DNA of 40,979 nucleotides from a virus (lineage: Duplodnaviria; Heunggongvirae; Uroviricota; Caudoviricetes): the IMG/VR virus record IMGVR_UViG_2675903468_000003, positions 1-40,979 of that record. The stretch is one strand, 5' to 3'. Below are positions 1 to 40,979 of this stretch, in pieces. Position numbers and translations under genes: made by a program. The notes under the pieces were generated by a model. It was given only the letters and a program-made list of their open reading frames with translations, was not told the origin of the DNA and ran no database searches. Numbering within the stretch: the first letter of the stretch is position 1; the number at the start of each line of letters is the position of its first letter.

Positions 1-1158
1 ATGCTCACCGTTAAGCAGATTGAAGCAGCAAAGCCGAAAGAAAAACCATACCGCCTACTCGATGGTAATGGCCTGTACCTTTATGTCCCTGTGTCAGGGA
101 AAAAGGTATGGCAGCTTCGCTACAAGATTGACGGTAAGGAGAAAATCCTGACCGTAGGAAAATATCCGCTAATGACTTTGCAGGAGGCAAGAGATAAAGC
201 ATGGACCGCGAGGAAAGACATCTCGGTTGGCATCGATCCGGTAAAAGCGAAAAAGGCTTCGTCTAACAACAATTCCTTTAGTGCGATTTACAAGGAATGG
301 TACGAGCACAAGAAGCAAGTCTGGTCAGTAGGCTATGCAACTGAACTTGCAAAAATGTTTGATGACGACATTTTACCTATCATCGGCGGCCTTGAAATTC
401 AGGATATTGAGCCGATGCAACTTCTTGAAGTAATCCGCAGATTTGAAGATCGCGGTGCAATGGAGAGAGCCAACAAAGCCCGCAGAAGATGCGGCGAGGT
501 TTTCCGTTACGCTATTGTCACCGGCAGGGCTAAATATAACCCAGCACCTGACCTTGCTGACGCCATGAAGGGATACCGCAAGAAGAACTTCCCGTTTCTT
601 CCTGCAGACCAGATCCCGGCATTCAACAAAGCACTGGCAACATTTTCAGGAAGTATCGTATCGCTCATTGCAACCAAAGTTTTACGCTACACAGCCCTCA
701 GAACAAAAGAACTTCGTTCCATGCTATGGAAGAACGTCGATTTTGAAAACAGGATTATCACTATCGACGCCAGTGTGATGAAGGGACGCAAGATTCATGT
801 GGTCCCGATGTCAGACCAGGTGGTTGAACTTCTCACTACGCTAAGCTCAATCACCAAACCAGTCTCAGAGTTTGTTTTTGCCGGTCGCAACGATAAGAAG
901 AAGCCAATTTGCGAGAACGCTGTACTACTTGTGATCAAACAAATCGGCTATGAAGGTCTGGAAAGCGGTCACGGATTCAGGCATGAATTCAGCACGATTA
1001 TGAACGAGCACGAATGGCCTGCTGACGCTATTGAAGTGCAACTGGCACATGCCAACGGCGGATCTGTGCGTGGGATTTACAACCATGCTCAGTATCTCGA
1101 TAAGCGCAGAGAAATGATGCAGTGGTGGGCGGATTATCTCGATGAGAGGGTGGCATAG
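1..1158 (+). CDS. int: Tyrosine integrase, P4/IntS-like
   Basis: 385 aa. N-terminus MLTVKQIEAAKPKEKPYRLLDGNGLYLYV and C-terminal HGFRHEFSTIMNEHEW...QLAHANGGSVRGIYNHAQY are typical of P4-family integrases; recalled as close to E. coli IntS. Confidence 0.9.
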   Translation: MLTVKQIEAAKPKEKPYRLLDGNGLYLYVPVSGKKVWQLRYKIDGKEKILTVGKYPLMTLQEARDKAWTARKDISVGIDPVKAKKASSNNNSFSAIYKEWYEHKKQVWSVGYATELAKMFDDDILPIIGGLEIQDIEPMQLLEVIRRFEDRGAMERANKARRRCGEVFRYAIVTGRAKYNPAPDLADAMKGYRKKNFPFLPADQIPAFNKALATFSGSIVSLIATKVLRYTALRTKELRSMLWKNVDFENRIITIDASVMKGRKIHVVPMSDQVVELLTTLSSITKPVSEFVFAGRNDKKKPICENAVLLVIKQIGYEGLESGHGFRHEFSTIMNEHEWPADAIEVQLAHANGGSVRGIYNHAQYLDKRREMMQWWADYLDERVA

Positions 1159-1561
1159 CGCCACCTATAAACCGTGCAATAATCAAACTCACATGCGCAT
1201 CGTTGATGATGTATGTGATCACCCCAAACACTGGCGAAGTCACATTGTAGTCACCCGTTGAGTCTGGCATCTCTTCACGCTTACCGTTCTCCTGATTAAC
1301 CAGGTGAGGTTTTGGGTGAATTCGGTAACGCTTTATCCTTAACTCATCACCTATCCTGCAAACAAGCAGATAGCCATCACATGGCTTAAGTGAGCTATCC
1401 ACGACCAGCAAGGCACCATTCTGGATGCCTTCTCGCCAGTATGTTTGCCCTGCTCTCATAAAGTATGTAGATGCTGGATGTTCAACGAATTTTTCATCAA
1501 GCGACATGCTTCGCTCTACGTAGTCTGCTGCTGGTGATGGGAATGCCATGATGAATGCCAT
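1028..1561 (-). CDS. UmuD'-like (S24 LexA/UmuD fold) protein, degenerate; C-terminal extension antisense to int
   Basis: Starts aligned to UmuD about residue 25 (FPSPAADYVE is an exact match; HPASTYF and VFGVI blocks follow), so the RecA-cleavage site is absent. The nucleophile motif GDSM reads GQTY by my alignment. Homology ends near 1180 but the frame stays open to 1028, overlapping the int 3' end. May be a pseudogene. Confidence 0.5.
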   Translation of the reverse strand: MAFIMAFPSPAADYVERSMSLDEKFVEHPASTYFMRAGQTYWREGIQNGALLVVDSSLKPCDGYLLVCRIGDELRIKRYRIHPKPHLVNQENGKREEMPDSTGDYNVTSPVFGVITYIINDAHVSLIIARFIGGAMPPSHRDNPPTTASFLCAYRDTEHGCKSHAQIRRWHVPVALQ

Positions 1562-1566
1562 GCCGA

Positions 1567-1586
1567 TGCTGTTTATACATACAGTA
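1567..1586. promoter_or_regulatory. LexA (SOS) box upstream of the UmuD'-like ORF
   Basis: tgCTGTttatacatACAGta matches the CTGT-N8-ACAG consensus, about 6 nt upstream of the ORF start codon. Confidence 0.6.
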
Positions 1587-1707
1587 TTTATTCATTATGG
1601 ATACAGATCAAGCCCGCCGAAATAGACAGTTACTAACTTCTTGTTTTATTTTAGTATATAGTTATAAGTATGGATATGTACTGAACTCATAGACCGCGTT
1701 GTCGGTT

Positions 1708-2859
1708 ATGGATGTTCTTGATGGTATACTGGTTCTGATAACTATAACTTTGAGGGTTCAGTGCGTGGACAAAGTATTATCGATTCACTACTTACGAGGT
1801 TTGGCGGCACTTGCTGTTGTTGCATTTCATCTTAGACCACTTATTGATAACGTTTATGCACAAAAAAATCTTGGGCAATTACTTTTTTCGCATGGTGATT
1901 TCGGTGTTGATTTATTTTTCATAATAAGTGGTTTTATTATAACGTTAGCTACATCAAATGTGTCTCAAAATTATATTAGTGATTTTATAATAAAAAGGAC
2001 TTTTAGAATATACCCAGTACTAATTATTGGATTGGTTGGTATTTTCTTTCTCATGCCTAATGAGGATTTTTCAAATATTATTCGATCAGCCATACCTTTA
2101 CATTTGGACTACTCTAGGGAAGCGCCATACTTTGGGTATAATTCATTGATAACAGCTTGGACATTAACCTATGAATTATACTTTTACTTCATATTTTTAG
2201 TTGCGATGTTTGTTTCACACAAATATAGAGCTTATATCTGCTCTGCTATTTTGGTGTTACTTGTATTGATATCACAATTATATTTCAATGGTTCTGTCAA
2301 TTTTTCAGGTAATGCTATAGCAAAAATTGATAATTCTTCTTATATGATGGCTTTGATAAAATTCTCATCATCACCGATGTTGCTTGAATTTGTCGTCGGG
2401 ATGATGCTGTATGAGTTTCGAAAGGTTATAATACGCGTACCTTTCGCAAATATAATATCATTTTCATTAGTTGCGTTTGTAATTTGTTCTTTCTTCTCAG
2501 GGTATAAATCATCGCATGGTCCATTGAATTATGGAATTTGGGGGCTTTCATTATTAATAGCGGCATTAGTATATGACTCAAAAAATGGAATAAAAGATAA
2601 TAAGGCATTATCATTTTTAGGCGATATTTCTTATTCGCTTTATATATCGCATGTTCTTGTGATAAAATTCTTTATGCTCCATTTCACAACGTTCCCGTTA
2701 TACTCATCGACATCTGGATTTTCAAAATTCTTATTTTTAATGTTTACATCATTAATTATTTCTTATTTTATGTTTGTTTTTATTGAGAAACCATTTATAA
2801 AATTAGGTAGAAAGGCAATTTCTTCATCATATTTTGTTAAAATGAGAGTCGCAAGCTAA
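1708..2859 (+). CDS. Acyltransferase family 3 integral membrane protein (O-antigen/LPS acyltransferase-like moron)
   Basis: Multi-TM protein with LRGLAALAVVAFH and FGVDLFFIISGF motifs. Visibly AT-rich compared with neighbours. Sits between int and tailspike, where serotype-conversion genes occur in P22/Sf6-type phages. Track ORF begins at a TTG (1699); the first ATG is 1708. Confidence 0.8.
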   Translation: MDVLDGILVLITITLRVQCVDKVLSIHYLRGLAALAVVAFHLRPLIDNVYAQKNLGQLLFSHGDFGVDLFFIISGFIITLATSNVSQNYISDFIIKRTFRIYPVLIIGLVGIFFLMPNEDFSNIIRSAIPLHLDYSREAPYFGYNSLITAWTLTYELYFYFIFLVAMFVSHKYRAYICSAILVLLVLISQLYFNGSVNFSGNAIAKIDNSSYMMALIKFSSSPMLLEFVVGMMLYEFRKVIIRVPFANIISFSLVAFVICSFFSGYKSSHGPLNYGIWGLSLLIAALVYDSKNGIKDNKALSFLGDISYSLYISHVLVIKFFMLHFTTFPLYSSTSGFSKFLFLMFTSLIISYFMFVFIEKPFIKLGRKAISSSYFVKMRVAS

Positions 2860-39889: not shown

Positions 39890-40090
39890 ATGCAACACGA
39901 ACTACAACCTGATTCACTGGTTGATTTGAAATTCATCATGGCCGATACTGGCTTTGGTAAAACCTTCATCTATGACCGGATTAAGTCCGGAGACCTGCCT
40001 AAAGCCAAAGTTATCCACGGGCGAGCACGATGGTTATATCGTGACCATTGTGAATTCAAAAATAAGCTCTTAAGCCGCGCTAATGGGTAA
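39890..40090 (+). CDS. AlpA/Xis-type DNA-binding protein (candidate excisionase)
   Basis: 66 aa MQHELQPDSLVDLKFIMADTGFGKTFIYDRIKSGDLPKAKVIHGRARWLYRDHCEFKNKL; AlpA/Vis-family HTH pattern; last phage-like gene before the att motif. Confidence 0.7.
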   Translation: MQHELQPDSLVDLKFIMADTGFGKTFIYDRIKSGDLPKAKVIHGRARWLYRDHCEFKNKLLSRANG

Positions 40091-40619: not shown

Positions 40620-40979
40620 CTATATTGCTGAAGGTACAGGCGTTTCCATAACTATTTGCTCGCGTTTTTTACTCAAGAAGAAAATGCCAAATAGCAACAT
40701 CAGGCAGACAATACCCGAAATTGCGAAGAAAACTGTCTGGTAGCCTGCGTGGTCAAAGAGTATCCCAGTCGGCGTTGAAAGCAGCACAATCCCAAGCGAA
40801 CTGGCAATTTGAAAACCAATCAGAAAGATCGTCGACGACAGGCGCTTATCAAAGTTTGCCACGCTGTATTTGAAGACGGATATGACACAAAGTGGAACCT
40901 CAATGGCATGTAACAACTTCACTAATGAAATAATCCAGGGGTTAACGAACAGCGCGCAGGAAAGGATACGCAACGCCAT
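40620..40979 (-). CDS. LacY-family (oligosaccharide:H+ symporter) permease C-terminal region, probably host flank; possibly partial
   Basis: ...LSTPTGILFDHAGYQTVFFAISGIVCLMLLFGIFFLS resembles the LacY C-terminal TM region. ORF starts at the last base of the window, so the 5' end may lie outside it. Confidence 0.5.
   Translation of the reverse strand: MALRILSCALFVNPWIISLVKLLHAIEVPLCVISVFKYSVANFDKRLSSTIFLIGFQIASSLGIVLLSTPTGILFDHAGYQTVFFAISGIVCLMLLFGIFFLSKKREQIVMETPVPSAI

Follow-up and report, generated by a model that had tools for sequence, protein, structure and literature searches.

The UmuD protein of Escherichia coli is synthesized as a 139-aa precursor that carries a cleavable N-terminal arm and a Ser60/Lys97 dyad and is encoded in an operon with umuC, and its shortened form UmuD' (PDB 1UMU, 1I4V, 1AY9) is a subunit of DNA polymerase V (Pol V). 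Phage P1 possesses a homolog, HumD (YP_006569.1, 129 aa), which McLenigan et al. 1999 (J Bacteriol 181:7005) reportedly found to dimerise, to bind UmuC and RecA filaments and to substitute for UmuD' in SOS mutagenesis. P1 HumD has been described as an already activated, shorter UmuD (PMC7092418). Here, an open reading frame (ORF) of 177 aa from a prophage of the Caudoviricetes was compared with these systems. The ORF was taken from a mechanical ORF list and lies on the minus strand (1028..1561) of a stretch of 40,979 nucleotides (positions 1 to 40,979 of the IMG/VR record IMGVR_UViG_2675903468_000003), which is referred to as the window in its whole length; 131 nt of the ORF (1028-1158) are antisense to the integrase gene int. 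A preliminary description, made from the DNA letters alone, had presented it as a degenerate UmuD'-like gene behind a LexA box; apart from small corrections, what it stated on the sequence was confirmed. The finding is real but ordinary: the gene is a damaged copy of the known phage gene humD.

The assignment to the HumD family was based on profile and sequence comparisons. The ORF matched the NCBIfam model NF051876 (“HumD family translesion DNA polymerase”), which names P1 HumD as the prototype, with 178.3 bits (cutoff 120) over profile positions 1-119 of 129, whereas its score against the UmuD model NF007621 was below the curated cutoff (79.4 bits vs 110). It also matched PHROG 811 (“UmuD-like”) and, with 30.9 bits (cutoff 23.3), the Pfam domain Peptidase_S24, a match that shows homology of the fold only. 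Searching phage genomes by tblastn revealed P1 HumD, N15 gp26, phiKO2 gp23, HK140 gp28 and HK639 UmuD with 54-65% identity. The preliminary description had aligned the ORF with UmuD from the FPSPAADYVE motif onward, and this alignment was reproduced: residues 5/6 to ~122 of the ORF corresponded to UmuD' from G25-FPSPAADYVE onward (PDB 1i4v, E = 5e-17), that is over the whole UmuD' length, and residue 6 paired with Gly25 of the UmuD chain 8gmt_B. Moreover, the gene order argW, intS, convergent humD, acyltransferase and tailspike was found in E. coli chromosomes, in which the gene is annotated as “HumD family translesion DNA polymerase”. These comparisons identify the ORF as a HumD-family gene, i.e., a phage-borne UmuD homolog that is made directly as the shortened UmuD', and place it outside the self-cleaving UmuD group (UmuD/MucA/RumA-type). 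A decayed fragment of an umuDC operon was also considered as its source and was ruled out by the family-typical short N-terminus and the sub-cutoff score of the UmuD model. The HumD family, known since P1 HumD, and the window protein itself (KRR61356.1) are already present in public databases.

Comparison with P1 HumD revealed 57.6% identity over residues 5-122. As in the window, the P1 protein starts at the equivalent of UmuD Gly25, the element contains no umuC and an annotated LexA site is located just upstream of the gene (box at -37). However, the residue at the Ser60 position is Ser in P1 HumD and Thr in the window ORF, and P1 HumD ends with the tail SGEFDDCPVI and a normal stop, whereas the window ORF lacks the tail, the stop and a Shine-Dalgarno (SD) sequence. 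The P1 gene adjoins lxr and phd-doc and not an integrase gene. The architecture of the window locus was found in the intS-linked HumD genes of E. coli argW prophages (WP_016245406.1, WP_096324793.1, WP_063122165.1) and in the related IMG/VR loci L092 and L094, so that the preliminary proposal to look for this ORF next to int in related prophages led to intS with a convergent humD. The core of these proteins is 63-91% identical to that of the window ORF and a LexA box is located at -34/-35; unlike the window ORF, they have a length of 129 aa, their tail is intact and a GGAGG ribosome-binding site is present, and some of the genes are accompanied by an extra upstream ORF of 79 aa. N15 gp26, phiKO2 gp23, HK140 gp28 and HK639 UmuD (58-65% identity to the window ORF, 128-129 aa) are all intact and carry the family tail, but their genomic neighbourhoods differ from that of the window; the LexA box of N15 is at -32, and in HK140 the 3' end of the gene overlaps with a putative phage attachment site (attP), and int points in the same direction as the gene. 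By analogy with UmuD', proteins of the family presumably play the same role as a UmuC-activating dimer.

Relatives were surveyed at 160 further loci found in genomes and in viral contigs, and these yielded 139 intact family ORFs of 120-135 aa, 122 of them unique. Three differences from UmuD (absence of the N-terminal arm and cleavage site, replacement of the catalytic Ser and absence of a umuC partner) had been noticed in the preliminary description, and each of them was seen again. Neither the arm nor the cleavage site was present in the window ORF when aligned with UmuD, and its start Met occupies the Cys24 column, as in 121 of the 122 unique relatives. At the Gly25 column 117 relatives have Gly; the window ORF has Ala, which it shares with 5 of the 122. 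The Ser60 column is occupied by Thr in 69, by Ser in 36 and by other residues in 17 unique relatives, and by Thr in the window ORF. At the Lys97 column, Lys was found in 85, Arg in 23, Met in 10 and other residues in four of them, and the window ORF keeps Lys. The UmuD chain 8gmt_B has Ala at the first Lys of VKKL and this column pairs with the Lys of the ORF; therefore, the assignment to Lys97 is secure. The catalytic residues, for which an alignment had been proposed earlier, were thus read from the UmuD chains and the relatives as Thr60/Lys97. No umuC-type Y-family polymerase was found among the eight ORFs scanned against Pfam, which included every ORF of UmuC size (431-500 aa). These eight ORFs were P22-type phage proteins or had no Pfam match, and the ORFs of 665-722 aa, which were outside the Pfam scan, fall in a stretch matching the structural genes of phage IME10. 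The lack of the arm, of Ser60 and of umuC is the signature of the HumD family and not a decay of the window copy. Features that look degenerate against UmuD are diagnostic of HumD and are not to be flagged as decay. Likewise, the earlier wording of a LexA-controlled noncatalytic UmuD'-like factor describes the gene family well, but not as something new, as it is the HumD family of NF051876.

The notion of a decaying gene did hold for this particular copy, on the grounds of two deletions and the loss of the SD sequence. All 139 intact relatives have 120-135 aa and nearly all end with GVITYIINDAR-xGEFDDCPV[M/I/L] and a stop; the tail is kept down to ~40% identity across Enterobacterales. The window ORF deviates from the family length of ~123-130 aa with the tail xGEFDDCPV[M/I/L] and, unlike the intact related sequences with their normal stop, runs on. 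Its HumD/UmuD'-like core (1196..1549, minus strand), which comprises 118 codons from the family Met to GVITYIINDA and matches NF051876, PHROG 811 and UmuD' in the PDB, is intact. The lesions were located in DNA alignments against four to five relatives with an intact gene, of which the closest show 90-91% identity in protein. The lesion zone (1165..1195, minus strand) contains a 4-bp deletion (~1193-1196) directly after the INDA codons and a 1-bp deletion (~1170-1171). These two deletions shift the frame of the last 10 conserved codons and therefore the tail xGEFDDCPVM is lost and the ancestral TAG (1165-1167) is out of frame. The frameshift makes an extension of 55 codons without homology (1028..1192, minus strand), which was found in none of the 139 intact relatives and in which the 131 nt antisense to int are located; the preliminary description had noticed this run-on past the end of homology and had put it at about 50 codons. 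In the old frame the sequence translates to C-EFDYCTVY-RW..., with D replaced by Y and P by T in comparison to EFDDCPVM, and without a stop. A programmed frameshift restoring the tail was ruled out by these mutations (EFDYCTVY) and by the missing stop of the old frame.

It could be argued that the frameshift and the run-on are errors of sequencing or assembly and that the true gene is a normal 129-aa humD, short indels being a common type of error. This explanation has hardly any probability and was rejected because of the recurrence of the lesions across independent assemblies. The identical 177-aa product was encoded in two independent Logan read-set assemblies, in both cases at argW. The 90% cluster of the ORF consists of five members from NCBI, JGI/IMG and ENA, among them KRR61356.1 (“DNA polymerase V subunit [Escherichia coli K71]”), which corresponds to the form of 173 aa; this automated label hides a probable pseudogene. 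Two other members differ in part from the window ORF: P0004 retains the frameshifted tail, but has a different 5' part and has lost the conserved PASTYFMRAG segment through an internal deletion, and represents a further stage of decay, whereas P0005 reads into a different int. The same lesions were found in E. coli F1267 (L008) and in the loci L172, L010 and L011. Positions 900-1228 of the window are 99.7% identical to the complete genome of F1267 and positions 1006 to ~1224 are identical to L172, an IMG/VR prophage contig, both deletions being included in both cases. In F1267 and L172 the remainder of humD is only a decayed remnant. The humD core of the window, upstream of this block, is well preserved.

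The window allele is probably chimeric and would have arisen by a recombination event in the highly conserved GVITYIINDA-coding stretch that linked an intact humD 5' part to the dead 3' end next to int. We infer this step from the alignments, and the order of events is unproven. The frameshift travels with the intS module in other prophages as well, and it would illustrate how an accessory gene that is itself intact can acquire a dead 3' end when prophage modules recombine. In many other E. coli genomes without humD, a 47-nt unannotated scar of the humD 3' end, ~86% identical, was observed beside intS (window 1182-1228; L008:2780-2830; L172:2416-2470). This distribution suggests that humD was ancestrally linked to the intS module and repeatedly lost.

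Whereas the 3' end is damaged, the operator is intact. The sequence CTGTTTATACATACAG at 1569-1584 is the sole CTGT-N8-ACAG of the 41-kb window. Such a match alone is not significant, with 0.57 matches expected in the window and at least one match in 42 of 100 shuffles. A LexA matrix was built from 51 distinct boxes upstream of related genes; with this matrix the 20-mer TACTGTATGTATAAACAGCA (1567..1586, minus strand, core 1569-1584) scored 29.7 bits, while the median of the relatives was 27.7 bits and the next independent site of the window scored 9.6 bits. The LexA consensus of Enterobacterales is TACTGTATATATATACAGTA, of which the window palindrome matches 17 of 20 positions. The family start codon follows 35 nt downstream of the box. 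Within 200 nt upstream of the gene a perfect LexA core was present in 72 of the 139 related loci, mostly at -32 to -37, and in 25 more loci a box at ~-275 to -280 stands in front of the 79-aa ORF. The box just upstream of the ORF, as claimed before, could thus be confirmed as the only one of the window and as occupying the same position as in the relatives.

A humD promoter was inferred on the minus strand (1583..1611), consisting of a putative -35 hexamer TTGATC (1606-1611), a 17-nt spacer and a -10-like AATACT (1583-1588) that shares positions with the left arm of the LexA box. Among the relatives, L006, L009 and L092 have conserved the TTGATC hexamer. This candidate promoter has 8 of 12 consensus positions and was read by eye and from conservation; a consensus promoter scan called no humD promoter on the minus strand. 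The start region (1547..1561, minus strand) contains two in-frame ATGs, at 1559-1561 and 1547-1549, within a direct repeat of two copies of ATGGCATTC in a 12-nt register. The second ATG (1547-1549) is the family start (M-A-F-P-S-P), from which the NCBI-annotated form of 173 aa begins. Where the relatives have GGAGG, the window carries the 9-mer ATGGCATTC a second time, and this copy gives rise to the additional in-frame ATG (1559-1561). Of 147 relatives, 128 possess an SD core, but none was found upstream of the window start.

Because the SD sequence is absent, the tail is lost and a nonsense extension of 55 residues is added, the copy is expected to give little or no useful protein, and it is probably a recently disabled or at best crippled HumD gene. 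Several observations speak against this reading. The core corresponding to UmuD' has no gap as far as the last residue aligning with UmuD, and of the 37 columns with at least 90% conservation just 2 depart from the family (G to A after the Met and S to Y in CDGS), so that such a protein could still be folded and active in spite of its junk C-terminal extension. The absence of an SD sequence is no proof of absent translation, and the putative promoter and the LexA box are intact. Finally, the window protein and P0003 differ by 2 aa, which shows that the frameshifted allele has existed for a time sufficient to diversify.

On such grounds, the frameshifted gene might be regarded as a still working UmuD' mimic whose core would fold, dimerise and activate the host UmuC, the 55 additional residues being tolerated or conferring a new property. 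Besides the core, which is intact to the end of the UmuD homology, and the unaltered LexA box and -35 hexamer, the occurrence of the allele in several independent samples would fit this explanation, as would the substitution pattern of the core: pairwise dN/dS (ratio of nonsynonymous to synonymous substitution rates) against relatives was 0.09-0.23, and about 0.1-0.2 on the branch of the window itself, with the two conserved columns as the only ones changed of the 37. Nevertheless, we regard a working mimic as unlikely. The conservation of the lost tail down to ~40% identity across Enterobacterales implies a function for it, the SD sequence is lost as well, and the tail remnant shows the replacements D to Y and P to T as neutral decay predicts. 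The sister allele P0004 has suffered a further internal deletion in the core, and the extension is merely a reverse-strand reading of int that changes when a different int is adjacent, as in P0005. The reading as a disabled or crippled copy is preferred.

For the intact members of the family, a mode of action can be proposed on the basis of the P1 HumD literature and the anatomy of the locus. LexA would sit on the box overlapping the -10 region and keep humD off. Upon DNA damage, RecA would be activated, LexA would undergo self-cleavage and humD would be transcribed. The HumD dimer would then form a Pol V-like translesion polymerase with the host UmuC, bypassing the slow RecA-mediated cleavage step of UmuD. 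As self-cleavage would be unneeded, the Ser/Lys dyad would be free to drift, and the Thr/Lys of the window ORF would be one such state.

The overlap with int was also examined with respect to the transcript. In the intact intS-linked relatives the humD stop is only 0-6 nt from the int stop; the long overlap in the window is due to the frameshift and is a by-product and not a designed overlap. A scan for intrinsic terminators found none in 900-1800, including the region between the convergent genes. A hairpin, GGTGGC-N5-GCCACC (1150..1166, -12.7 kcal/mol), lies across the int stop codon between the convergent 3' ends; several relatives have kept it, and a U tract is lacking on both strands. For positions 1100-1200 folded in the humD sense, the z-score was -1.8. 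No known RNA family was detected in 900-1800, the lone match (a snoRNA with E = 0.33) being a chance match.

The preliminary description had raised the possibility that the antisense overlap couples SOS induction to int expression. According to this explanation the transcript matters and not the protein: the LexA-controlled promoter would drive convergent transcription across the int 3' end and so tie int to the SOS response. The abutting 3' ends of humD and int (0-6 nt apart in intact relatives), with no predicted intrinsic terminator between them or nearby, would allow such transcription. In the prophage, int is located at the end opposite to the excisionase gene and hence would need its own control, since it is away from the excisionase and from early-leftward transcription, and, in spite of the damage to the coding capacity, both the putative promoter and the operator have stayed intact. 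On the other side, humD of P1, N15 and HK140 is not convergent with int; many intS elements (Sf6, HK620, F1267) have no humD or only the scar, so that regulation of int would be independent of humD; and an intact operator beside a recently damaged ORF is expected by chance. We consider it improbable that the transcript is what matters, and a shade more improbable still that the promoter has been kept for it and the damaged ORF reused as an SOS-responsive antisense unit tuning the integrase after DNA damage. An antisense coupling of int to the SOS response is poorly supported, as the geometry alone speaks for it.

The window begins at the ATG of int (1..1158, plus strand), which encodes an intS-type, Sf6-like tyrosine integrase with the Pfam domains Phage_integrase, Arm-DNA-bind_3 and Phage_int_M and is convergent with humD. 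At its 3' end int shares 98% identity with Sf6 int, and the int sequence of Sf6 and HK620 is common with the window only up to ~1151. On the other side of humD and divergent from it, an O-antigen-acetylase-like acyltransferase gene is located (1699..2859, plus strand; Pfam Acyl_transf_3), followed by a P22-type tailspike gene on the minus strand. In the mechanical list the acyltransferase ORF starts with TTG, and an ATG is present 9 nt downstream. The acyltransferase was called with 383 aa in one independent assembly and with 268 aa in another, and it may be variably truncated. The promoter scan showed a promoter-like site on the plus strand (1623-1652), which is a candidate promoter for this gene.

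The remainder of the window is P22/IME10-like prophage sequence. At its right end a TorI-type excisionase gene (39890-40090) is followed by a host MFS-transporter gene (40620-40979). No tRNA fragment was found in the window, and in related E. coli chromosomes a tRNA-Arg gene (argW) is located just upstream of intS. As the excisionase gene and then a host gene stand at the far end and argW lies upstream of intS in relatives, the window represents an integrated prophage with int and the excisionase gene at opposite ends. The stretch of int, humD and acyltransferase is contiguous in the prophage and the attachment site is outside the ORF. An attP within the ORF, with the run-on crossing the attachment site, was ruled out by the position of argW upstream of int in relatives, by the lack of a tRNA fragment in the window and also by the excisionase gene and the host flank at the far end of the window. 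The setting of the gene is best read as the accessory region between the int and O-acetyltransferase genes of a prophage that is Sf6/P22-like and integrated at argW of E. coli.

Two features of the family are somewhat more interesting than the window copy itself, namely the role of the HumD-specific acidic tail and the nature of the 79-aa SOS-controlled ORF. The tail comprises ~10 residues (xGEFDDCPVM, with the variants EFDDIPVI, EFDDTPF, EFDDIPL and EFDDNPCM) and lies beyond the end of UmuD'. It is borne by L004 (1501-1890), L006 (2766-3155), L009 (2766-3155) and ~130 other loci, and its remnant in the window occupies 1165-1192 on the minus strand. The tail is similar to DFDDDIPF, the acidic tip at the C-terminus of E. 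coli SSB, by means of which SSB is docked to a large number of repair proteins (PMC8162404). It is a speculation that the HumD tail might act as a mimic of the SSB tip. The 79-aa ORF (PHROG 3893, no Pfam match, “DNA polymerase V” in RefSeq) is not present in the window. In many relatives, such as L007 (3150-3389, minus strand) and L003 (2271-2510, HK140 gp27), it directly precedes humD and overlaps its start, and it may encode an SOS-controlled partner of HumD.

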